Below, in pieces: positions 1,143 through 58,275 of a DNA stretch of 64,000 nucleotides. The stretch lies in NCBI GenBank assembly GCA_021818475.1, contig JAKADZ010000002.1:536-64535 (forward strand), in the 5' to 3' direction. A program made the translations under genes and the position numbers. The notes under the pieces are model-generated. The model saw only the letters and a program-made list of their open reading frames with translations. It searched no databases and was not told where the DNA came from. The first letter of the stretch is position 1. Each line of letters opens with the position of its first letter. This DNA is from Nanobdellota archaeon. Lineage in GTDB: Archaea; Nanobdellota; Nanobdellia; Pacearchaeales; GW2011-AR1.

Positions 1143-1197
1143 TTCTTAAAATATAAAAACTCAATTTAACTTATTATTTTATGATAATTGAGGTGAA

Positions 1198-1345
1198 CAA
1201 TTTTGTGAATAGAAATTTTTCTCTTTTTAATAAGGGGAAGTTTTCACGAGTACAAAAAAATTTTCCGCTTGGGATGGGAGGGCGGGAATGACGAGTGAAA
1301 ACTTGAGCATGGAAAAGATAAATAAACGAAATTGTAAATTATTAT
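1198..1345 (+). repeat. mosaic intergenic repeat copy (gaatagaaa box, ttttcacgag box, G-rich core gggatgggagggcggg at 1271-1286)
   Basis: Same boxes recur in about 20 spacers of this window. Confidence 0.7.
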
Positions 1346-1349
1346 TGCA

Positions 1350-2036
1350 ATGAAAAAGGTGATTGTTATGAGTCTTGGCGGAAGCCTGATAATTCCGGAC
1401 AATGTCAATGTTAAATTCCTGAAAAATTTCAGAAAAACTATTTTGAAGAATACAGATAAATACAAATTTATAATTGTGTGCGGGGGAGGGAATATTGCAA
1501 GAAAATATATTTCTGCACTTAAAGAAATAAATGCAGATGAAAATCTTCAGAGTTTCGCAGGAATTTCGGCTACGAGGATGAATGCAAGATTTATGTCTTA
1601 CTTTTTCAATCAGGATCAGGAAGTAGGGATACCTCACAAAATGAAAGAACTGAAAAAATATGTAAGGAAATATAATTTTGTTTTTTGCGGGGCGCTTGAA
1701 TATAAACCGCATCAGACTTCAGATTCCACTGCAGCAGAAATTGCAAAAGCATTCAGATGCAATTTTATAAATTTAACCGATGTTTCAGGACTGCATGATA
1801 AAAATCCCAAAGAATTCAAAGATGCAAAATTTATTCCAAAAATTTCATGGAAAGATTTTAACAAAATGGCGAATAAAATAAAATTCAAGCCAGGGCAGCA
1901 TTTTGTCCTCGATCAGCATGCATCTAAAATGATAATGGAAAACAAAATAACTACTTACATTCTAGGAAAAAATATGAACTATTTAGATAACCTCCTGAAA
2001 GGAAAAAAGTTCAAAGGAACAATTATTGCTGAATAG
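1350..2036 (+). CDS. pyrH: UMP kinase, archaeal type (amino-acid-kinase fold)
   Basis: VMSLGGSLI start and IIVCGGGNIARKYI glycine-rich motif; about 226 aa, as in archaeal PyrH. Confidence 0.7.
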   Translation: MKKVIVMSLGGSLIIPDNVNVKFLKNFRKTILKNTDKYKFIIVCGGGNIARKYISALKEINADENLQSFAGISATRMNARFMSYFFNQDQEVGIPHKMKELKKYVRKYNFVFCGALEYKPHQTSDSTAAEIAKAFRCNFINLTDVSGLHDKNPKEFKDAKFIPKISWKDFNKMANKIKFKPGQHFVLDQHASKMIMENKITTYILGKNMNYLDNLLKGKKFKGTIIAE

Positions 2037-2532
2037 GGCTTGTATTTGATACTGCTTGTTTAGGTTTATTCCTGTTTTTTATTAGGAGATAAACAATTAA
2101 TGCAATAACAATAAAAATAATTATTCCGATAATTATCTGAAATGTTGTGCTGACAAAAAAGACTTCTTTATTTGAAGCAGTCTGAGAGGGAGAAGAGAAG
2201 TTATTCTGCTGAGTGGAAATATTATTAGAAGGAGTGGGGGAAGAGAAGTTATTCTGTATTTCAGAAGACGGAATGTTTTCCTGAGTAGGCGGAACAGACT
2301 GATTAGAAATATTTGAAGGAGAATTTAATGGAGGTGAAGGAATTGTTGTTGTAGGGTTAGAACAATCCTGCGGACAGGTTGATGCAGTTTCCCCTGGCTC
2401 ACAAATACCGTCGCCGCACATATTTTGAGTAGTCTGATTAAATGAACCCGCATCAAGACTTGATACTAATGGAGTTATAATTAAGAATATTAAAATTATT
2501 AATTCAATTGGGATTATTTTTATTTTTTTCAT
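2023..2532 (-). CDS. secreted S/T/P-rich protein with C-terminal membrane anchor
   Basis: N-terminal signal peptide, CGDGICEPGETASTCPQDC motif, low-complexity PSPT region, terminal TM helix; its start overlaps the stop of the upstream pilin-like gene. Confidence 0.6.
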   Translation of the reverse strand: MKKIKIIPIELIILIFLIITPLVSSLDAGSFNQTTQNMCGDGICEPGETASTCPQDCSNPTTTIPSPPLNSPSNISNQSVPPTQENIPSSEIQNNFSSPTPSNNISTQQNNFSSPSQTASNKEVFFVSTTFQIIIGIIIFIVIALIVYLLIKNRNKPKQAVSNTSPIQQ

Positions 2533-3689
2533 CTTATATATAAAATAACATTTGCTCTTTCATCATAAGTTTGACATGCACAACAGTGAGATGAAGACGG
2601 ACCTGCTTCACACCAACTATACCAAGCCCCATAAGACCCGCATGATTCACCGTGGCCATAATAGTTCTGATTAGACCACCCCCCATCTGGAGAAGAACAT
2701 CCTGAAGAACCCGTTGTTAAAATAGACCCCCATCCATCATTATAATTATACTTAACATAAAAAGTTTTTCCTGCATTAACATTATCATTCCCCCACTGAT
2801 TTGGATCCGATAAAAGATTATAAATATAAACATCAACAGGGTTTAGAGAATTATACCTGTATTGCTGTGTCCAGTGTCCTCTTGTTATTTTATCTCCGGA
2901 ATTTAAAATTGATTTTATAATTGAATCAGATAATTTAACTGTCGTTGCAGAGTTTGGGTCCAATACCGTTCCCACAGCATTAACATTCCAGCAATTGGAA
3001 GATGGAACTGCACCATTAAAAGAAGGATAATTTGGATTGTTTTCGGGACGGCATACTGCAGCTAAAGTCCATCCGCCCCCATCAGTAGTCATATCACAAT
3101 AAACCTGCATCAGATTATTTCCGTCAGGATTAATCCAGTAAATACCGTCTCCGCGTGAAGCACTCAAAAAACTTTTACAGGAAGTTCCGGGACTTGATTG
3201 GCTGTTAAGAGCATCAGAATTAGCTTTATAAAGGTCATAAGAATCAACTACATTTCCTGTTGTCTCCTGACCGTTTGAGGTAGCAATAGGAGCAATTGAA
3301 ATAGTTTTTATTCCAAATGGACCAAGGTCAGAATAAGGGATTGTAAATGTCTGAGTTCCGAGTTCCTGCAGCGAGGAGGGTTCTTTTATTACCTTGGAAT
3401 TTGTCCCGTCAGAAACAATAAAATTAATTGAGGTTAAATCTCCCTGCCCGGAATTTCGTTGAACTGTAACAGCAACATCCCCGTTAGGTTCAAGATTAAC
3501 ATTCTGCAATTTAAGACTGATGAACATTTGCCCAAATGAAGAACTTGCCTGCTGAGTTCCTGATTTTAGAATATTTGAAACAACAACCCAGACAACTCCG
3601 ATAGCGACGAGAGAAAGAACAATTATTATCAATGTAACAACAATGTCAGAAAGACCTTTTTTATTTCTCAGTTCTCCCCTTTTTTTCAT
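2529..3689 (-). CDS. pilin-like (class III signal peptide) surface protein with fibrinogen-related-like C-terminal domain
   Basis: KKGLSDIVVTLIIIVLSLVAIGVVWVV prepilin-type N-terminus; GIYWINPDG...VYCDMTTDGGGWT matches the fibrinogen C-domain hallmark. Confidence 0.7.
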   Translation of the reverse strand: MKKRGELRNKKGLSDIVVTLIIIVLSLVAIGVVWVVVSNILKSGTQQASSSFGQMFISLKLQNVNLEPNGDVAVTVQRNSGQGDLTSINFIVSDGTNSKVIKEPSSLQELGTQTFTIPYSDLGPFGIKTISIAPIATSNGQETTGNVVDSYDLYKANSDALNSQSSPGTSCKSFLSASRGDGIYWINPDGNNLMQVYCDMTTDGGGWTLAAVCRPENNPNYPSFNGAVPSSNCWNVNAVGTVLDPNSATTVKLSDSIIKSILNSGDKITRGHWTQQYRYNSLNPVDVYIYNLLSDPNQWGNDNVNAGKTFYVKYNYNDGWGSILTTGSSGCSSPDGGWSNQNYYGHGESCGSYGAWYSWCEAGPSSSHCCACQTYDERANVILYIR

Positions 3690-3731
3690 TCTATCAGATA
3701 GTTTTTAATATTTAAAAATTCTATTATAAAA

Positions 3732-4196
3732 ATGAATCAGATAATAATTGAAGAAAATAATTTTGACAGGGCAAGAAAATTAATTAATGAAAATAAAGAA
3801 AAGAAAATAATCTTTTCTTCTGACGATGATGAGATTAACAGAAAAATTCTTGAAAAAGAAAAGATAAATATGCTTTTGTTAAATCAATCAGGAAGAAAAG
3901 ATTTTCAGAAACAAAGAAATTCAGGATTCAATCAGGTTCTTGCAAAACTTGCGAAAAAGAATGAAGTCCTGATCGGAATCAACTTTGATGAAATAATAAA
4001 ATCAGAGGAGAGAGAAAAAGCCAAAATTTTAGCGAGAGTAATGCAGAATATTGAAATTTGCAAAAAAAATAAAGTAAAAATGAAATTTATCACAAAAAAT
4101 CAAAAGAGGAATATTCATGACTTAAAATCATTAGGTTTAGTCTTGGGTATGCCAACATGGATGACGAGCGATTTCGCAATGCCGGAAAAAATTTAG
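3732..4196 (+). CDS. RNase P protein component 3 (Rpp30-like), short form
   Basis: GFNQVLAKLAKKNEVLIGINF...LKSLGLVLGM aligns by eye with archaeal Rpp30 (GIDHVLAKL...LISLGVVIGM); the last about 10 codons are encoded by a repeat element. Confidence 0.65.
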   Translation: MNQIIIEENNFDRARKLINENKEKKIIFSSDDDEINRKILEKEKINMLLLNQSGRKDFQKQRNSGFNQVLAKLAKKNEVLIGINFDEIIKSEEREKAKILARVMQNIEICKKNKVKMKFITKNQKRNIHDLKSLGLVLGMPTWMTSDFAMPEKI

Positions 4197-4277
4197 TTGC
4201 ATTTGCGGGGTCGGGAGCAGAGCGATTTCACGAATGCTTGAAAATTTTTAAATGCAATGAGTGGAGTCGGGAGCAGA
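4166..4277 (+). repeat. two tandem copies of repeat module (gatttcRcgaatgc...aaatttaRntgca...gtcgggagcag)
   Basis: Copy a 4166-4220 and copy b 4220-4277; related to 13150-13210, 18490-18560 and 37430-37490. Confidence 0.7.
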
Positions 4278-4326
4278 AGCAACCTGTAAAAGGAACCTTT
4301 TAATATCCCTTTTCTTTAGAATTAAT

Positions 4327-5841
4327 ATGGCTGTTGCTGAAAAAATAATAGAATCTTTAAGTGCAAATGAGAGGAAAATATTACCTTACCTAAATGAAAA
4401 TATCGAAGAAATCTCGAAGAAATCTCATCTGGACAGGACTTCAGTTTTAAGAGCGTTGGAATATTTAGAAAACAAAGGAATTGTGACATTAAACCATGAA
4501 AAAAAGAAATTTGTGGAATTAGGAGTTAATGGTGCTTTATACAAAAACAAAGGTTTGCCGGAAAGAAGATTATTAAGTTTATTAAACGAAAAAACAATTT
4601 TGAAGCTCGAGGATGCACAAAAACAGAGTCAGCTTTCTGATGATGAATTCAAAGTTTCTCTAGGAGTTCTAAAGAAAAAAGCTCTTGTTGGAATAAGCAA
4701 TGGGAAAATATCACTTTCTGCACGCGGTGATGAAATTTCAAAAAAAAGTCTGGAAGAATTATTTCTGGAATCGCTTCCGATGGAATACAGACTATTAAAA
4801 CCGGAACAATTATTCGCATTAAAATCTCTTGAAAACAGAAGAGACATAATAAGGATAAAGGAAGAAGAATCAGTGGGAGTTAATGTAACAAAAGTAGGAG
4901 AAGAAATAGTAAAATCAGAAAAAAAAGTAGGAGAATTAATTGAAGCAGTTACCCCGCAAATGCTTGAAAAAGAATCGCTATGGAAAGGAAAAAAATTCAG
5001 AAGATATGATGTTACTTCACAATTGCCTTCAATAAATGGTGGCAAAAGGCATTTTGTAAATCAAGCTATTGATTATGCGAGAAAAGTCTGGACAGAGATG
5101 GGATTTCAGGAAATGAACGGGAATATGCTTCAAAGTTCGTTCTGGAATTTCGATGCTTTATTCACTGCACAAGATCACCCAGTAAGAGAAATGCAGGATA
5201 CTTTCTTTGTAAATAAAAAAGCTGAATTGCCGGATAAGAAATTAGTGAAAGCAGTAAAAGACAGTCATGAAAAAGGAGTTGACGGAAGCAAAGGATGGGA
5301 ATATGAATGGAATGAAGAAGAAGCCAAAAAAGTAGTTTTGAGGACACATACGACATGCTTATCCGCAAATACTCTTGGAAAGATGGATAAAAAAAATATT
5401 CCTGTAAAATTTTTCGCAATTGGAAAATGTTTCAGAAATGAAACTGTTGACTGGAGCCATGGGTTTGAATTCAATCAGTCAGAAGGGATAGTCGTCGGAA
5501 AAAATTTAAGTTTCAGAAATCTTCTGGGCTATTTGCAGGAATTTTTCAAAAAAATGGGATTTGAAAAAATTAGATTCCGCCCATCTTATTTCCCTTACAC
5601 AGAGCCAAGTGTAGAGATAGATGTATGGCATCCGGAGAAAAAAATATGGTTTGAACTGGGAGGAGCAGGAATTTTCCGTCCTGAAGTCACAATTCCATTA
5701 TTAGGAGAAAAAATGACAGTCCTTGCATGGGGCCCGGGTTTTGACAGAATGATTATGGATTATTACAACATAAAAGATTTGAGAGGACTTTACAAAAATG
5801 ATTTAAGTAAATTAAGAAAGATGAAATTTTGGATGAAATGA
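4327..5841 (+). CDS. pheS: phenylalanyl-tRNA synthetase alpha subunit
   Basis: Class II motifs FRNE (motif 2) and GPGFDRMIM (motif 3). Start set at ATG 4327 (MAVAEKI) because the upstream GTG extension lies in a repeat. Confidence 0.9.
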   Translation: MAVAEKIIESLSANERKILPYLNENIEEISKKSHLDRTSVLRALEYLENKGIVTLNHEKKKFVELGVNGALYKNKGLPERRLLSLLNEKTILKLEDAQKQSQLSDDEFKVSLGVLKKKALVGISNGKISLSARGDEISKKSLEELFLESLPMEYRLLKPEQLFALKSLENRRDIIRIKEEESVGVNVTKVGEEIVKSEKKVGELIEAVTPQMLEKESLWKGKKFRRYDVTSQLPSINGGKRHFVNQAIDYARKVWTEMGFQEMNGNMLQSSFWNFDALFTAQDHPVREMQDTFFVNKKAELPDKKLVKAVKDSHEKGVDGSKGWEYEWNEEEAKKVVLRTHTTCLSANTLGKMDKKNIPVKFFAIGKCFRNETVDWSHGFEFNQSEGIVVGKNLSFRNLLGYLQEFFKKMGFEKIRFRPSYFPYTEPSVEIDVWHPEKKIWFELGGAGIFRPEVTIPLLGEKMTVLAWGPGFDRMIMDYYNIKDLRGLYKNDLSKLRKMKFWMK

Positions 5842-6239
5842 AAAAACAAACAAACAATGATTGTATATTCTGCAAAATAATTGCAGGAGAAATTCCCGCG
5901 GCAAAACTTTGGGAAGATGAAAAATTTTTTATTTTTTTAGACCAGTCTCCGATAAATCCAGGACACACTTTAGTCATACCAAAGAAACATGCAGATTATC
6001 TTTTCGATTTAAATGAAAAAGAATATGCCGAATTAATGTTAAAGGCAAAAGAAGTTGCAAAAGTTTTGAAAAAGAAAATGGACTGCAAAAGAGTAGGCAT
6101 GGCGGTTGAAGGATTTTTTGTTCCGCATGTTCATGTTCATTTAGTTCCGGAAAATAAAGGGAATGAATTAAATCCTGAGAGGGCAAAACCAATGACTCCC
6201 GAGGAATTAAATAAAATAAAAGAAAGGATTTTGAAATAA
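5838..6239 (+). CDS. HIT-family nucleotide hydrolase
   Basis: CIFCKI start and histidine triad HVHVHLVP; ATGA start/stop overlap with pheS (the ORF track starts at 5829). Confidence 0.85.
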   Translation: MKKQTNNDCIFCKIIAGEIPAAKLWEDEKFFIFLDQSPINPGHTLVIPKKHADYLFDLNEKEYAELMLKAKEVAKVLKKKMDCKRVGMAVEGFFVPHVHVHLVPENKGNELNPERAKPMTPEELNKIKERILK

Positions 6240-6277
6240 AATGATAAAAAATAAAATTTCACAAATTAAAAAAACTT

Positions 6278-6341
6278 TGATTTCCCGAATAGAAAACCTT
6301 TCCCCATGGGTGGGCGGGTGGGAACTAGGAGGTGTCGTCGC
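6278..6341 (+). repeat. mosaic repeat copy with G4 core gggtgggcgggtggg (6308-6322) and junction motif ggaggtgtcgtcgc abutting the pheT ATG
   Basis: cgaatagaaaa...tttcccc...GGGTGGGCGGGTGGG consensus shared with other spacers. Confidence 0.75.
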
Positions 6342-8000
6342 ATGGCTAATGTAACATTTCCGACAAAACAATTTGAAAAAGAAATAGGGAAACTAGATGA
6401 GAAAATGCAAAACAAGATTGCAATGTTCGGAACTCCCTTGGAAAAATTTGATGATAATGAAATAGAAATCGAAGTTTTCCCGAATCGTCCTGACCTGCTT
6501 TCATATCACGGATTCAAGAGAAGTTTCCTTGCATTCTTAGAGAAAAAAACAGGATTAAAAGAGTACAAACTTAACAAACCGGAAAAGGATTTTGTGGTTA
6601 ATATAGACTCATCGGTAAAAGAGGTTCGTCCGTATACAGTTTGTGCAATTGTTAAAGGATTAAAATTTGACGATGATAAAATAAAAGAGTTAATAGACAT
6701 TCAGGAAAAACTGCATTTCACAATCGGAAGGAGAAGAAAAAAATTAGCTATAGGAATTTATCCTCTTGAAAAAATAAAACTTCCAATAACTTTCAAAGCG
6801 CTTGAACCAGATAAAATTAAATTTATCCCGCTTGAGATGGATCGGGAAATGACAGGGTTGCAAATTTTGCAAAAACATCCTACAGGGAGGGAATATGCGC
6901 ATCTTCTTGCAGGAAAAGCAAGATTTCCTATATTTATTGATGCAGAAGAAAAAATACTGAGTATGCCTCCAATCATTAATTCACATTTAACAGGAAAAGT
7001 AACAAATGACACAAAAGAAGTTTTCATCGAATGTTCGGGTTTTGATTTAAATGCGTTAAATAAATGTCTTAATATCATAACCACAAATCTTTCCGAAATG
7101 GGAGGGGAAATTTTCCAGATGGAAATTCGGGAGCATAAAAATAAAAAGATTACCCCTAATTTCACTCCGGATAAAATGAAGATTAGTATTGAAAATGCAA
7201 ATTCTCTTTTGGGGGTAAATCTGAAAGAGAAAGATATCGAAAAATTTTTGACCAAAATGGGATACAACTACAAAAAAGGGGTTGTTGAAGTTGCACCTTG
7301 GAGAACAGATGTCCTTCACGAAGTAGATTTAATAGAAGACATTGCAATTGCATATGGCTATGAAAATTTTATTCCTGAAATTCCCAAGATAACCTCAATA
7401 GGAAAAGAAGACAAAGAATGGATAGTAAAAAGAAAAATTGCGGAGATATTGACAGGATTAAACATTCTGGAAGTTTCAAATTATCATCTAACTTCAAAAA
7501 ATGACCAGTTTAAAAAAATGTCTTTACCGGAAGAAAAATTTATTGAAGTTGAAGAATCAAAAACAGATTATACTATTTTAAGGAAAGACCTAACTCATTA
7601 TTTGCTGAAAATTTTATCAGAGAATGTTGATTCAGAATATCCTCAGAGAATTTTTGAATCCGGAAAAATTTTCAGAGGGTTGGGCAGGCAGGACGAGATA
7701 GGCTCTGACTTGGCTGAAACAGAGAATCTCGCTCTTGCAATTGCTCCTGCAAATTTCACAGAAGTCAGGCAAATATTAGAATATCTTTTCAGAATGCTGA
7801 ATTTGGAAATAAAAATTTCAGAGCCGGAAAAAGCTCCTGGATACCTTATAGAAGGAAGAGTTGCAGAAGTTAAATTAGATGGTAAGCCAATTGGATTTTT
7901 GGGAGAAGTTCATCCAAGAATTTTGAGAAACTGGAAAATAAAAATGCCTGTATCAATCTTTGAAATCAACTTAGAAAATATATTTGAAAAACTAAGTTGA
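6342..8000 (+). CDS. pheT: phenylalanyl-tRNA synthetase beta subunit (archaeal type)
   Basis: Length and MANVTFPTKQF...FPNRPDLLS N-terminus typical of archaeal PheT; follows pheS; the upstream 12 codons of the ORF are repeat-encoded. Confidence 0.9.
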   Translation: MANVTFPTKQFEKEIGKLDEKMQNKIAMFGTPLEKFDDNEIEIEVFPNRPDLLSYHGFKRSFLAFLEKKTGLKEYKLNKPEKDFVVNIDSSVKEVRPYTVCAIVKGLKFDDDKIKELIDIQEKLHFTIGRRRKKLAIGIYPLEKIKLPITFKALEPDKIKFIPLEMDREMTGLQILQKHPTGREYAHLLAGKARFPIFIDAEEKILSMPPIINSHLTGKVTNDTKEVFIECSGFDLNALNKCLNIITTNLSEMGGEIFQMEIREHKNKKITPNFTPDKMKISIENANSLLGVNLKEKDIEKFLTKMGYNYKKGVVEVAPWRTDVLHEVDLIEDIAIAYGYENFIPEIPKITSIGKEDKEWIVKRKIAEILTGLNILEVSNYHLTSKNDQFKKMSLPEEKFIEVEESKTDYTILRKDLTHYLLKILSENVDSEYPQRIFESGKIFRGLGRQDEIGSDLAETENLALAIAPANFTEVRQILEYLFRMLNLEIKISEPEKAPGYLIEGRVAEVKLDGKPIGFLGEVHPRILRNWKIKMPVSIFEINLENIFEKLS

Positions 8001-14465: not shown

Positions 14466-14582
14466 AGCCCCATAGTACAGCGGTCAAGTATATCGGCCTC
14501 TGGAGCTCACGAGAGAGTCGTTCACTCTCTCCGTATAGAACAGAGAGAGCCGGTGACCCAGGTTCGAATCCTGGTGGGGCTA
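14466..14582 (+). tRNA. tRNA-Gln(CUG) with 44-nt intron at 37/38
   Basis: AGCCCCA acceptor, D arm GTAC/GTAT, anticodon stem TCGGC/GCCGG, T arm CCAGG-TTCGAAT-CCTGG; intron 14504-14547. Confidence 0.75.
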
Positions 14583-48623: not shown

Positions 48624-48863
48624 TTAATCTCTTTTTAAAACTCTGATAAATAACAAAACTGCTACCAAAGCAGTTGCTAATCCCATTATAACATCAACAA
48701 CTCTTGCAACAGCCACATCATTGAAAAGCTGTGTAAAACTAGCCAAAAATATTCCGACAGTCATTCCTGTAACTCCCCAAATAAAAGCAAAAGCTATCAT
48801 AAGGATTAATACAACTTTTACGAATGCATTTGGAATAAATTCAGCTTCACCTTTTTGATTCAT
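48624..48863 (-). CDS. small two-TM membrane protein (79 aa)
   Basis: Last gene of the co-directional surface cluster. Confidence 0.45.
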   Translation of the reverse strand: MNQKGEAEFIPNAFVKVVLILMIAFAFIWGVTGMTVGIFLASFTQLFNDVAVARVVDVIMGLATALVAVLLFIRVLKRD

Positions 48864-48885
48864 TTTTTACCTCCTTTTTGATAGT

Positions 48886-50874
48886 TTATAATTTATTATG
48901 CACTAAAATATTATCTGCATAATAATAATGATAATTATCTATTTCCAGATTATAAGTAATTTGGGGGTCATAAACTTTTTTAATACTTGTAATGATAACC
49001 TTTTCTCCAGAAGAATTGATTAAATAATCACCAACTTTAGCATTTCCGATTTCAGTAAGATGACCATTAACAATTATTGGATGATTAGGAGTTACTTCCA
49101 AATATCCATTAATTAATAGATAGTAATTTCCCATTTCATAAGGATTATGTTCAAATGTCTTTGAAACCCTTGAAATTACTTGTTTCTTAGTTAATTCATT
49201 ATAACTTACAACTTTATCCCCTACTTTTACATCTTCAATATTTTTCAAACTGCCATCTGCCATTAATACTTTAGTTCCAGCTAAGAAACAAGCTTGCACT
49301 CCAACAACATAAGCTTGACTATATTGAATTCCCCCGTTTCCTTTCTTTCCAGTACCAACACTTACCGTAGGATCAGGTGTGGTTGGGGTAGTAGTAGCAG
49401 AAGAGATTAAATTGGATTCGTAACTAGTTGGAACAGTGATAGCTGGAAGGACAACCCCCCCTAATGAAGCACCAGCCTGACTATTTAAAGAAGCATATGT
49501 AGTTGCATCAACTGAAGTATATTGTATGGTTCCATCAGGATTAGTACCTGTTGCTACCAGATATAGAGGGGATGAAACTGTAGTAGGACTTGTAGTAGTC
49601 GTGGTAGTCGTGGTAGTCGTGGTAGTCGTAGTAGTTGATGGAGTGGTGGAAGTTGCTGGAGTTGATGAAATACCTGTAGAACCTGGTGCAGCATTACATC
49701 CTGGTCCAGAAGTACAACCTTGATTAACTATTGGAGTATAGACAGTAACTACTTGTGGCGGGGTGTAGGATGGAATAACCAAAGGAGTTAGGGCGATAGT
49801 TGGTGTAGCAGAAGGTAGAATAGGGTCAATTAAGCCGACAGAGGGTAATTCAGAAATTGGAGTCGGAATAAATCCTGGTGTAGGCTGACCCCCGTAAGGA
49901 TTTACATAACCATAACTAGGGGTAGTAGTACTAACAGCAGGAAGGATAGCTCCATGAGGGGAATTTGTTCCTCCAGTTTGTGAAGAAGAGGGATTGTAGC
50001 AACCAGCTCCCAAATAACATGCTTTAACTGTTCCGGGAGTTGGGTCTCCAAAAAAATTATTATTACATGGAGCAGAAGGAGAAGTAGCAACTATTGTATT
50101 AAAATTATTATTCGCGCCGTATGAAACAAACCATGTTCCTGAAGGAATATTACAGGTTCCCCCCTCATCTGCGCATTTTGTGCATCCTGAAACCTGAATA
50201 TCACAAGGTGAATGAGACACATTCGGAGCAAATGTTATAGCAGCAAGAAATTCTCCTGAACTCCCAAGAGGAATAAAATAATCATTGTTAGGGTTAGAAT
50301 TATGCAGTTGGTAACAAACAGAATTCATCATAATTTTATTAGAATAATCCTGTGGTTTGAGTTCATAACAAAGCCCTCGAATTCCTGCTTTTTGACATTG
50401 AGCTTCAGTTCTAAAACCAGAACCGTGAATTGGGAGATGCACATCAGAATTGGGAGTAACAACTATTGAAGAAGTTACATCATTAAAATTATTATTGACA
50501 AAACAATCATCATTGGAAGATAAAGTCAGGAGATTTCCCTGAAAATTATCATCCGAATATAACTCAACAGTATAACCTGAACTAACTTTAATTGAAGATA
50601 AATCATTATCTTTTATTCCCAAAGCCTGCAACTGACTGAGAGAATAAGCTCCCGGATATAATCCAACCGAATATCCCCCATAACTACAGTCCTGATAAAC
50701 TGTTACAGGAGCTAATATAGATGTAACTGAAGTTGTAGTAGTTGAAGTTGAAGTTGACTTATCAACATTAGACCCAGGAGTAACTCCAGCAGCAGGAGAT
50801 ATAGCCAAAGGAACTAAAAAAAATAAGAATACAAAGCTGATAACTAAAACAGGCAGTATTTTTTGATTGTTCAT
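48886..50874 (-). CDS. secreted protein: signal peptide, beta-gamma-crystallin-like domain, Cys-rich region, S/T/P linker with Thr15 run, C-terminal Hint (intein-like) domain
   Basis: Hint at 48889-49290: CFLAGTKVLMADG (block A), TPNHP (block B), terminal ILVHN followed only by KL. Crystallin-like region: YQDCSYGGYS...DLSSIKV...LYSDDNFQG...VTSSIVV. Confidence 0.75.
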   Translation of the reverse strand: MNNQKILPVLVISFVFLFFLVPLAISPAAGVTPGSNVDKSTSTSTTTTSVTSILAPVTVYQDCSYGGYSVGLYPGAYSLSQLQALGIKDNDLSSIKVSSGYTVELYSDDNFQGNLLTLSSNDDCFVNNNFNDVTSSIVVTPNSDVHLPIHGSGFRTEAQCQKAGIRGLCYELKPQDYSNKIMMNSVCYQLHNSNPNNDYFIPLGSSGEFLAAITFAPNVSHSPCDIQVSGCTKCADEGGTCNIPSGTWFVSYGANNNFNTIVATSPSAPCNNNFFGDPTPGTVKACYLGAGCYNPSSSQTGGTNSPHGAILPAVSTTTPSYGYVNPYGGQPTPGFIPTPISELPSVGLIDPILPSATPTIALTPLVIPSYTPPQVVTVYTPIVNQGCTSGPGCNAAPGSTGISSTPATSTTPSTTTTTTTTTTTTTTTSPTTVSSPLYLVATGTNPDGTIQYTSVDATTYASLNSQAGASLGGVVLPAITVPTSYESNLISSATTTPTTPDPTVSVGTGKKGNGGIQYSQAYVVGVQACFLAGTKVLMADGSLKNIEDVKVGDKVVSYNELTKKQVISRVSKTFEHNPYEMGNYYLLINGYLEVTPNHPIIVNGHLTEIGNAKVGDYLINSSGEKVIITSIKKVYDPQITYNLEIDNYHYYYADNILVHNKL

Positions 50875-50875
50875 T

Positions 50876-51565
50876 TTATCCGCATTTAACCTTTAAATCA
50901 TCAATTTCTTTTTGTTGCTCTTTTATAGCTTCAACCAAAACTCCGACGAGATTTCCATATTCAACAGATTTTAATCCGGTAACTTCATTGGTTGAAACTA
51001 ATTGAGGATAAACTTTTTCAACATCTTGAGCAATTAAACCCACATCTGCTCTTCCGTCGGATTTCCAGTTAAATGAAACTCCCTGAAGTTGCTCTACTTT
51101 AGATAATGCATCCTGAAGTTCACTGATGTTAGTTTTTAATGATCTGTCTGAAGTATAAAGAAAAGCAGTGCCTGATATGTAATTAGCAGAAAGATTTCCG
51201 CCTATTGCAACATTTCCATTTATACTGGTAAGCAAATTCTTGCTCCAGTCAGTAGGTGCAATCAAAAGTTGTGTTCCTGTTTTAGGTTCAATATAAATTT
51301 GACCAGTTGGATTGTATAAACCCCACATTTCTAATTTTGTCTGTCCATAAGTTGAAGAGGAACCTGGGCAGGTTGAAGCGTCACATGTAGAAAATAATTC
51401 CTGATTAACACCTGCACTAAAATCAATTTGAGCCGCAGAATGTCCCGGATTTGGAACAGCTGCATAAACTCCTGCTGCAACTAATGCAATAATTCCCAAA
51501 GTAATTAAAAAGTAAATAGCTTTATTAGACAAACTAGTCTTTTTTAACCCCTTTTTATTCACCAT
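50876..51565 (-). CDS. signal-anchored protein with C-terminal peptidase-S74 (intramolecular chaperone) domain
   Basis: YTSDRSLKTNI (Ser-Lys dyad context), GVSFNWK, VGLIAQDVEKVYPQLV, VEYGNLVGVLVEAIKEQQKEIDDL. Confidence 0.7.
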   Translation of the reverse strand: MVNKKGLKKTSLSNKAIYFLITLGIIALVAAGVYAAVPNPGHSAAQIDFSAGVNQELFSTCDASTCPGSSSTYGQTKLEMWGLYNPTGQIYIEPKTGTQLLIAPTDWSKNLLTSINGNVAIGGNLSANYISGTAFLYTSDRSLKTNISELQDALSKVEQLQGVSFNWKSDGRADVGLIAQDVEKVYPQLVSTNEVTGLKSVEYGNLVGVLVEAIKEQQKEIDDLKVKCG

Positions 51566-51616
51566 ATCGAATATAAGAATGAAGGGTTTTTAAATATTTT
51601 TATTATTTTAAGAAAA

Positions 51617-52147
51617 TTAATTGAATTCTGTTTTCTTTTTCAGTTTTCTGAGGAGAAAAATTAAAATTACAATTAATAACAATGGAAGGAAATAAAAAAT
51701 TTTTCCGTATGAAATTTCGTCTGTTGTTTTTCCTGTTAAAGATAAAAATTTTTCTCCGTTGACATTCAGTTCAATCCATGCTCCAATTCCATATGAAGAA
51801 TTATTTAATTTGTACATCAAAGCACCATAATAATTCCCGCTGTTTTTTGAAGAAATGCAGATGGGATAAGTTCCTGATTTTATTTCTGAAGGAATCTGCG
51901 GATAAATCCCAAGGCTGTCCGAGGAAATTTTATAATCAATCAAATTTTTGCTGTTTTCATTGCTCCATTTTATTTCCCCGTTGAAAATGCGGTAATCATC
52001 TCCCAAAAGGGTAAAATTCCTGCAGACGATTTCATTTGTTTTTTCAGAAATTTTTATTGTTCCTGGGGAAATACCAAGAGTTAATGCAGAAAAAAAGTGA
52101 AGGAAAAAAATTATTAAAATAAAAGCGAAGAAAAATATTTTTTTCAT
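51617..52147 (-). CDS. secreted protein with C-terminal TM anchor (176 aa)
   Basis: Signal peptide, beta-rich body, terminal hydrophobic helix plus KKK. Confidence 0.5.
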   Translation of the reverse strand: MKKIFFFAFILIIFFLHFFSALTLGISPGTIKISEKTNEIVCRNFTLLGDDYRIFNGEIKWSNENSKNLIDYKISSDSLGIYPQIPSEIKSGTYPICISSKNSGNYYGALMYKLNNSSYGIGAWIELNVNGEKFLSLTGKTTDEISYGKIFYFLPLLLIVILIFLLRKLKKKTEFN

Positions 52148-52185
52148 CTAATCAGTTTTTTGAATTAATATTTAAAAATTTAGAT

Positions 52186-52692
52186 TCATGCAGGCATGAC
52201 CCAGAGAATTAAGTTTGTTGAAAGGTTTAATCCACTGGTTATTGTATCAGGGTAATCCGTCAAATCAAGTTTAATGCAGGAATTATATTGATCACCATCT
52301 CCTCCCCTGTAAGTGGTTGGGGGATTTAAAGTCGAAGAAGTCAAATTATGACTGCGATAATAAGTAACATTATGCCAGGTAGAACAATCATCATCTGTAG
52401 CAAATTCGAGATAATCAAAGATTTTATCTGCATTTTCTTCTAAAATCGGGCTCAGTTTTAAGTCTAAATCCCCGACATTTTTAATAGTGATATTTTTTGA
52501 AATAGTTTCGTAACCTGCAGTTGTTTCCCCAAGATTAATATTATTCGGAAAAATTTCTATCATCGCAGTTGGCTGGGAAATATTAACTGAAACTGTTAAA
52601 CTTGAATTGGTATATGTATCAGCGCTTCCGGATGAGCAAAAGTAAGTCATAGAGAAGAGTAAGAAAAAAATCACAACCCCTTTTTTATTCAT
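52186..52692 (-). CDS. secreted protein (168 aa)
   Basis: Signal peptide; ITIKNVGDLDLKL beta-sandwich-like pattern. Confidence 0.5.
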   Translation of the reverse strand: MNKKGVVIFFLLFSMTYFCSSGSADTYTNSSLTVSVNISQPTAMIEIFPNNINLGETTAGYETISKNITIKNVGDLDLKLSPILEENADKIFDYLEFATDDDCSTWHNVTYYRSHNLTSSTLNPPTTYRGGDGDQYNSCIKLDLTDYPDTITSGLNLSTNLILWVMPA

Positions 52693-58157: not shown

Positions 58158-58275
58158 GAGGCTGTAGCTCAGCCAGGTTAGAGCACTGCTCTGATAGACT
58201 CAAACAAGTTTGGTTTGCCGAGTTCGTTTGACTTCAGCAAGGCAGGGGTCCACAGTTCAAATCTGTGCAGCCTCA
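58158..58275 (+). tRNA. tRNA-Ile(GAU) with 43-nt intron at 37/38
   Basis: GAGGCTG/CAGCCTC acceptor, anticodon stem CTGCT/GGCAG, loop CTGATAA, T arm CACAG-TTCAAAT-CTGTG; intron 58197-58239. Confidence 0.75.

Follow-up and report, generated by a model that had tools for sequence, protein, structure and literature searches.

In a window of 64,000 nucleotides of DNA from a Nanobdellota archaeon (GenBank assembly GCA_021818475.1, contig JAKADZ010000002.1, positions 536 to 64,535), one gene encodes a protein of 662 amino acids that ends in a Hint domain, followed only by two residues and the stop codon (Table 1). By sequence and modelled structure this domain is an A-type bacterial intein-like (BIL)/PT-HINT domain with its catalytic residues complete, and it is predicted to be active. 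The protein itself is probably an exported surface or secreted, glycan-binding one. We estimate the probability that the Hint is an autoprocessing domain that removes itself from this protein after export at roughly 60%.

The profile searches place the domain clearly. Pfam PF07591 (PT-HINT) matched it with 50.7 bits against a cutoff of 27.7 (E = 3e-13), over profile positions 3-136 of 137, whereas the intein, Hog-type Hint and Vint profiles were weaker than PF07591 or remained below their cutoffs: PF01079 (Hog-type Hint) reached 28.5 of the required 29.7 bits and covered the N-terminal half only, and the intein profiles TIGR01445 and TIGR01443 were both below cutoff. The best solved structure by sequence was the C. 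thermocellum BIL domain (2lwy, E = 2.8e-14), followed by 8w20 (“Intein C-terminal splicing domain-containing protein”) and by BIL2 of Tetrahymena BUBL1 (6tmm and 6y75, E = 1.7e-8). The AlphaFold2 (AF2) model of the domain, built on 17 terminal Hints, has a predicted local distance difference test score (pLDDT) of 94.1 and a predicted TM-score (pTM) of 0.87. Foldseek aligned this model to 2lwy with a TM-score of 0.85 (root-mean-square deviation 2.0 Å) and to BIL2 (6y75) with 0.87; mini-inteins (about 0.7-0.8) and Hedgehog (1at0, 0.74) came lower. The sequence and structural traits of A-type BILs are all present, namely a fold of about 130-150 residues, Cys1, TxxH, a terminal His-Asn, no Cys, Ser or Thr at +1, and a location in the variable region of a non-conserved exported protein.

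An initial annotation, made from the letters of the window, had already proposed a signal peptide, a crystallin pair, a Cys-rich region, an S/T/P linker and a Hint in this order, with Cys1 (CFLAGTKVLM), TPNHP and a terminal VHN followed only by Lys-Leu at 48889-49290. All of these are seen, alignment to Hint profiles (which it had called for) gave the matches described above, and the chemistry it expected, N-terminal thioester formation followed by cleavage or transfer, is that of the A-type BIL family. It had, however, treated the missing +1 nucleophile as an anomaly, whereas this is a hallmark of A-type BILs (PMC4031507), and among 229 full Hint copies of the relatives described below Lys occupies +1 in 132 (58%) and Cys, Ser or Thr in only 22 (about 10%). 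Its statement that protein splicing is impossible is right for canonical splicing through a +1 Cys, Ser or Thr, which cannot occur, but too strong overall, because A-type BILs ligate their flanks at low yield and a two-residue C-flank starting with Lys does exist.

Three other identities were rejected: a true intein, given the terminal position, the Lys at +1 and the variable host protein; a Hedgehog homolog, given the absence of an adduct-recognition region and the presence of His-Asn; and truncation by assembly, given the same HNKL and HNKLA endings on independent contigs. There is no second Hint in the 64-kb window. The Hint DNA has a lower GC content (26.6%) than the window (33.2%), but Lys, Asn, Ile and Tyr are abundant in the domain, and we therefore draw nothing from this difference.

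Alternatively, the domain may fold without processing anything, with a structural or binding role at the linker's tip. Non-catalytic domains with the Hint fold exist, a weak Pfam AXH match was seen, and at a block F position where many inteins have Asp, this protein has Asn642. However, the active BIL 2lwy has Asn at the same position, and in an alignment of the 17 terminal Hints (A1), which are 42-53% identical to the query, Cys1, the Thr and His of block B, the His of block F (His649) and the terminal His-Asn are all invariant. With every catalytic residue intact across relatives that have diverged by about 50%, we consider a non-cleaving Hint very unlikely. His576 (Hint position 48; 49147-49149, (-)) is also invariant in this alignment and aligns with the Zn-ligand His48 of BIL2. 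A metal switch shared with BIL2 is nevertheless only a lead, because the equivalent of the second Zn ligand, His125, is Asn642.

The terminal position of the domain is not unique but recurs widely. HMMER search of 1.84 billion representatives returned 14,915 relatives at E ≤ 1e-3, 162 of them at E ≤ 1e-30, and the terminal layout is found in about 16-18% of the closest ones: 27 of the 151 best representatives end no more than 12 residues past the Hint, and tails of 1-10 residues occur in 22 of 137 relatives. Several endings are nearly identical to that of the query (HNKL in P0073, HNKLA in P0017, HNKLI in P0040, and also HNKVA). We verified stop codons 0-6 residues past His-Asn in loci L014, L019, L022, L025, L029, L030, L033 and L059; the P0073 cluster, with the HNKL ending, has 11 members of 904 residues on contigs of up to 43 kb, and P0074 lies on a 90-kb contig. 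The bacterial terminal-Hint proteins share the plan of the archaeal one, with a signal peptide or transmembrane segment, an N-terminal domain, a low-complexity linker, the Hint and a stub; other hosts are prepilin-type proteins, a C25 peptidase with immunoglobulin (Ig) domains and a disintegrin/Ig protein. With the single Hint as query, GTDB genomes yielded relatives of the domain in Thermoplasmatota, Pace- and Woesearchaeota, several candidate phyla radiation (CPR) phyla, uncultured Gammaproteobacteria, Elusimicrobia, Clostridia and Streptomyces. The terminal layout is thus widespread on exported proteins of uncultured bacteria and archaea, among them pilin-like, protease and lectin- or adhesin-like ones, and in it nothing follows the Hint that could be released.

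Many close relatives (P0004-P0153, e.g. P0073, P0017 and P0022, and locus L059) carry 2-5 full Hint copies in tandem, mostly 1-6 residues apart (e.g. ...VHN-K followed directly by CFVAGT...). Except for the ciliate BUBL loci, we found no description of tandem Hint arrays in the literature.

Terminal Hints have kept their catalytic residues as well as internal ones have. Across the 229 full copies, Cys1 is present in 217 and the terminal His-Asn in 218 (95% each). Cys1 is kept in 25 of 26 terminal and 193 of 204 internal Hints, and His-Asn in 24 of 26 and 195 of 204, respectively. This equal conservation of His-Asn, overlooked in the initial annotation, implies that the C-terminal reaction still matters at the end of a protein. 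The ratio of nonsynonymous to synonymous substitution rates (dN/dS) over terminal Hints is 0.065-0.17 in three GTDB species that have the same layout and belong to other lineages than the target, and their GKQ tail is identical. The short tails are also enriched in lysine: 24 of 30 have Lys within +1 to +4, where the C-termini of control proteins predict 4.6 ± 2.0, a large effect whose significance is overstated, since the sequences are related.

These results bear on another explanation, in which the protein is a polymorphic-toxin-like or hypervariable surface protein that lost its C-terminal cargo by deletion or recombination, leaving a Hint that may be active yet has no function. PF07591 is defined as a domain just before the toxin (PMC3482391), most close relatives carry 40-640 residues after His-Asn, and those of Streptomyces have the classic pretoxin layout, with a toxin tail of 83-148 residues and often Ser or Cys at +1. 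Furthermore, terminal Hints form no separate clade but are scattered among internal ones (the nearest neighbour is terminal in only 9 of 26, the background being 11%), and, as shown below, the Hint is present or absent among orthologs. We nevertheless regard the loss of a cargo as quite improbable: we found no orphan cassettes, Hint fragments or immunity-type gene specific to Hint-bearing loci, the N-terminal parts are lectin-like, pilin or protease and not Rhs or filamentous haemagglutinin, and neither the purifying selection on terminal Hints of other lineages, with their identical tail, nor the non-random, Lys-rich short tails would be expected of a functionless remnant.

The gene lies fourth in a tight five-gene operon (48624-52692, (-)) next to MCM, whose order is a 168-residue protein, a 176-residue protein, a 229-residue protein with a Peptidase_S74 domain, the Hint protein and a 79-residue protein with two transmembrane segments. 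The same operon next to MCM was found on two contigs of one ENA sample (L080 and L081), with flanking genes 43-59% identical, and the slot of the Hint protein is filled in different ways. In the window it holds the crystallin domain, Cys module, linker and Hint; in P0002 the Cys module, linker and a Hint ending in VHN-KKSQQ; in P0003 and P0169 the Cys module and linker with no Hint. No remnant of a Hint was seen in the Hint-less locus L081, and the gene for the 79-residue protein is conserved whether the ortholog beside it has a Hint or not. The closest Hint (65% identical) belongs to an unrelated subtilase/Ig protein of another uncultured archaeon (L001), whereas that of the positional ortholog P0002 is only 38% identical to the target, which marks the Hint as an accessory, shuffled module. 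The L001 protein (2964-7100, (+)) has 1,378 residues and carries its Hint between a subtilisin-type protease and Ig-like repeats, with a poly-Thr linker after it; through this Hint, the protease would be detached from the Ig part.

In the target lineage, the Hint is therefore most likely an optional, shuffled, self-removing C-terminal module and not a toxin-release device, because there is no C-terminal cargo, the two-segment membrane protein gene is independent of the Hint, and P0003 and P0169 lack it. By analogy with characterized domains, its action may be pictured as follows. After export through Sec and folding outside the cell, Cys529, helped by Thr595 and His598, would attack the carbonyl of Ala528, and this N-to-S acyl shift would convert the Ala528-Cys529 bond into a thioester. 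The thioester would be resolved by water, or by the amine of the tail Lys661 in a step coupled to the cyclisation of Asn660, and this cyclisation would clip off the stub. The mature protein of about 500 residues would then consist of the crystallin domain, the Cys module and the linker, without the Hint, whose role may be that of a transient pro-domain, comparable to the S74 chaperone domain encoded by the adjacent gene. We infer cleavage, its site and the nucleophile that would resolve the thioester from A-type BILs, which have a terminal His-Asn and no +1 nucleophile and are cleaved at both ends (PMC4031507, PMC7765530); in their minor ligation reaction, the amine of the freed C-flank attacks the N-terminal thioester after Asn cyclisation (PMC4031507). 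The stub may also be ligated through its Lys, which would echo the isopeptide bonds of Tetrahymena BIL2, which conjugates its N-extein to Lys of other proteins in an ATP-free reaction (PMC8616854). The initial annotation had also suggested that cleavage could release the N-terminal part; it cannot free this part from an anchor, since the Hint has no membrane segment.

Several points weigh against self-removal after export. The signal peptide is called from hydrophobicity alone. We found no published experiment on this protein or on any terminal BIL. The only Hint-bearing ortholog in the operon is P0002, and at 38% identity the history of the slot appears to be one of shuffling and not of long-term retention. 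Finally, it is hard to see what selective advantage mere self-cutting would bring, although purifying selection on terminal Hints is strong and the tail Lys is kept; this hints at something more specific than hydrolysis.

The last point would be met if the Ala528 thioester were captured in trans by an outside nucleophile (Lys or the N-terminus of a partner protein, the envelope, a lipid head group or a host surface), covalently attaching the crystallin/lectin-like part to it. Such coupling to an envelope or host nucleophile had been suggested in the initial annotation. BIL2, which performs such conjugation, is among the closest solved relatives, His576 aligns with its Zn-ligand His48, and the Hint protein has no anchor of its own yet is encoded in a conserved operon of membrane-anchored surface proteins; the purifying selection and the tail Lys, too, suggest a role beyond self-removal. 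On the other hand, the two residues past the Hint leave no sterol-recognition-like or other adaptor region, no acceptor candidate was identified, His125 of BIL2 is replaced by Asn, P0003 and P0169 do without a Hint in the same operon, and hydrolysis is the default fate of a thioester outside the cell. We thus consider transfer in trans unlikely for this protein, although a possibility to keep in mind. Its generalization, in which terminal BILs as a class are a prokaryotic “protein-dispensing” device similar to Hedgehog and BUBL, passing the thioester to an amine (the tail Lys, or Lys or the N-terminus of an envelope, partner or host protein), is speculative and seems to us slightly less likely still. 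If true, modules of lectin, pilin and protease type would be fixed covalently to a surface without sortase, ATP or membrane anchor, and the crystallin/lectin-like protein studied here would be tethered to a host cell or to the surface structure that the adjacent genes of the operon build. Self-removal of the Hint remains the reading that we prefer.

Table 1. Features of the Hint protein and of its operon partners in the window.
Feature	Position	Strand	Basis
Whole open reading frame (ORF), 662-residue exported protein with C-terminal Hint	48886..50874	(-)	ORF list, Pfam scan
Residues 1-29, predicted Sec signal peptide or signal anchor	50788..50874	(-)	Kyte-Doolittle scan
Residues ~55-140, single beta-gamma-crystallin domain, two Greek-key motifs	50455..50712	(-)	Identity to PF00030 domains
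Residues 141-297, Cys-rich module, 10 Cys	49984..50454	(-)	Alignment A2 with P0002, P0003, P0169
Last ~60 residues of Cys module (residues ~229-292), CTKCADEGGTC...FGDPTPGTVKACY	about 49999-50190	(-)	Small domain not in Pfam
Residues 298-528, low-complexity linker with long poly-Thr run	49291..49983	(-)	Composition
Residues 529-660, A-type BIL/PT-HINT autoprocessing domain, 132 residues from Cys1 to terminal Asn	48895..49290	(-)	Pfam, PDB match, AF2, Foldseek
Cys529 (CFLAGTKVLM), Hint residue 1, predicted thioester-forming nucleophile	49288..49290	(-)	Invariant in A1
Thr595-Pro-Asn-His598, block B TxxH	49081..49092	(-)	Thr and His invariant in A1
His659-Asn660, block G terminal His-Asn, predicted site of Asn cyclisation	48895..48900	(-)	Invariant in A1
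Lys661-Leu662, two-residue C-flank; stop codon 48886-48888 next	48889..48894	(-)	Sequence read
Downstream partner, 79 residues, two transmembrane segments	48624..48863	(-)	58-59% identity to L080 and L081 neighbours
Upstream partner, 229 residues, N-terminal transmembrane segment and Peptidase_S74 self-cleaving intramolecular-chaperone domain	50876..51565	(-)	PF13884, 64.8 bits
176-residue protein (signal peptide and C-terminal transmembrane segment) and 168-residue protein (signal peptide)	51617..52692	(-)	57% and 43% identity to L081 genes, same order

The remainder of the protein is consistent with an exported, glycan-binding function. Its sole hydrophobic segment, residues 2-34 (MNNQKILPVLVISFVFLFFLVPLAISPAAG), was found by a Kyte-Doolittle scan of the whole protein, in which only windows starting at residues 2-16 exceeded 1.6; this stretch fits a Sec signal peptide or signal anchor. 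Pfam Crystall scored 22.8 bits on the query alone, under its cutoff of 25, but the crystallin assignment stands because the region is 53-60% identical to the PF00030-bearing domains of P0166, P0167 and P0001 and contains two Greek-key signatures of the Y/F-x4-Y/F-x-G type (YQDCSYGG and YSDDNFQG). The linker, of 231 residues and 57% S/T/P/G, ends in ...YVVGVQA, so that Ala528 is the -1 residue of the Hint. Probably because poly-Thr dominated the word index, the full-length query gave only 3 matches, and the modules were then searched separately. The exact 662-residue sequence is absent from a collection of 15 billion proteins that does contain proteins encoded beside it on the contig, each on 4-5 contigs; other assemblies may differ in the start call or in the length of the poly-Thr run.

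The AF2 model of the Cys-rich module, from a 4-sequence alignment, is poor (pLDDT 47). Its last ~60 residues, with the pattern C..C...G.C...YG...C.N.FGDPxPGxVKACY and no Pfam model, form a small domain common to 45 metagenome loci (L082-L126), often as the very last domain of a protein. Since its partners there are ricin-type lectins, a rhamnosidase-like glycosidase and pilin-like proteins, the domain is probably an undescribed carbohydrate-binding module. None of the 45 loci contained an ortholog of the target or a Hint in the same ORF. In L084/L085, a UvrD/PcrA-type helicase (1180-4377, (+)) with a full intein, including an endonuclease-sized insert, adjoins a pilin-like protein with the Cys module; this Hint is that of a true intein in a UvrD-type helicase, its position next to the module is a coincidence, and it is unrelated to the finding described here.

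Within the operon, the ATG of the Hint protein gene lies 1 base past the stop codon of the upstream gene, and between it and the next gene are 22 nucleotides that contain GGAGG, a Shine-Dalgarno-like sequence. Because the S74 gene is directly upstream, two adjacent genes both end in a self-cleaving domain; the S74 protein (motif LYTSDRSLKTNI) is conserved beside the Cys-module gene in L081, with 48% identity. Together, the five genes may build a cell-surface structure. A viral origin of the operon is not supported, since the C-terminal S74 part of the 229-residue protein (residues ~120-228) is the only match to IMG/VR viral contigs. In L080 (positions 1-90 and 2243-2536), the P0002 gene is flanked by the end of one MCM gene and by an MCM-like ORF in which N-terminal MCM sequence passes abruptly into C-terminal sequence; this ORF may reflect the rearrangement or chimeric origin of an MCM copy, or else an error of assembly. 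The locus in the window (33% GC) is flanked by genes for MCM with an archaeal winged helix, TATA-binding protein, ATP-dependent DNA ligase and an RPA-like OB protein. Two tRNA genes of 117-118 nucleotides (14466-14582, (+), and 58158-58275, (+)) imply introns, which fits an archaeal genome.

BIL and PT-HINT domains have so far been understood mainly as toxin-release devices or as curiosities of variable bacterial proteins. Here the Hint stands at the end of a protein with nothing to release, yet selection on such Hints and the Lys of the stub persist, which suggests that the thioester chemistry itself has a role, either in self-removal of a pro-domain or in covalent attachment. If it serves self-removal only, our finding is routine annotation that adds an archaeal protein to a known autoprocessing family; transfer of the thioester would mean a sortase-independent fixing of proteins to cell surfaces. 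One domain with a two-residue flank makes a very simple test system for either. Our literature search found no description of terminal A-type BILs or of Hints on surface proteins of DPANN archaea or CPR bacteria, but the primary BIL papers were outside this search and an earlier description is possible.

A-type BIL domains, which reportedly go back to Amitai 2003 and Dassa 2004, are the best match by both sequence and structure. They share with the target the Hint fold of about 130 residues, Cys1, TxxH, His-Asn and the lack of a +1 Cys, Ser or Thr, as well as the place in the variable region of a secreted, non-conserved protein. The target differs in its archaeal host and in the position of the domain, which is at the extreme C-terminus with a two-residue flank and not between protein parts; Lys at +1 is a feature of its subfamily. 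It likewise passes the gathering threshold of PT-HINT (PF07591; Zhang et al. 2012, PMC3482391) over the full model and has Streptomyces Rhs-type toxins among its relatives. The functional definition of PT-HINT does not apply, however, because no toxin follows the Hint and the 79-residue gene is equally conserved at a Hint-less ortholog; the locus has no toxin, immunity gene, Rhs or filamentous-haemagglutinin repeats, and the N-terminal part is lectin-/crystallin-like. A true intein would sit in a conserved site of a conserved protein and be followed by Cys, Ser or Thr.

BIL2 of Tetrahymena thermophila BUBL1 (6y75/6tmm) resembles the domain in fold and sequence, in Cys1 and the terminal Asn and in the His48 equivalent His576, and its chemistry with Lys amines is a plausible parallel to the tail Lys. 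Yet BIL2 is cytoplasmic and eukaryotic and has ubiquitin-like domains on both sides, whereas the archaeal Hint has no acceptor domain after it and Asn in place of His125. Hedgehog and Hog proteins (Hoglet, Warthog) share the overall plan of a secreted N-terminal module, sometimes a long Thr-rich linker (as in Hoglet) and a C-terminal Hint with a Cys1 thioester; Hint-less paralogs exist among nematode hh-related genes (PMC2362128), like the Hint-less orthologs found here. They differ in their sterol/adduct-recognition region of ~60-80 residues, in place of which the target has only two residues, in the absence of His-Asn from Hog domains, and in sequence and structure, PF01079 being below its cutoff and the TM-score 0.74.

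Bacterial secreted proteins with a C-terminal Hint-like domain, a divergent non-BIL group with motifs A and B only, were noted by Buerglin 2008 (PMC2362128). Together with eukaryotic Vint proteins they have a signal peptide and a C-terminal Hint-type domain in common with the target, whose domain is, in contrast, a complete A-type BIL that has blocks F and G besides A and B. Dassa and Pietrokovski are said to have described such C-terminal Hint-like proteins alongside Buerglin. Peptidase_S74 of phage tail fibres and spikes, which acts through a Ser-Lys dyad, offers a functional analogy only, as a C-terminal domain that cuts itself off after its job; its fold and chemistry are unrelated to those of the Hint, for which a role in folding has no support. 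Taken against these systems, the archaeal Hint is not a new mechanism but a known autoprocessing domain in a terminal arrangement that is under-described and yet common.

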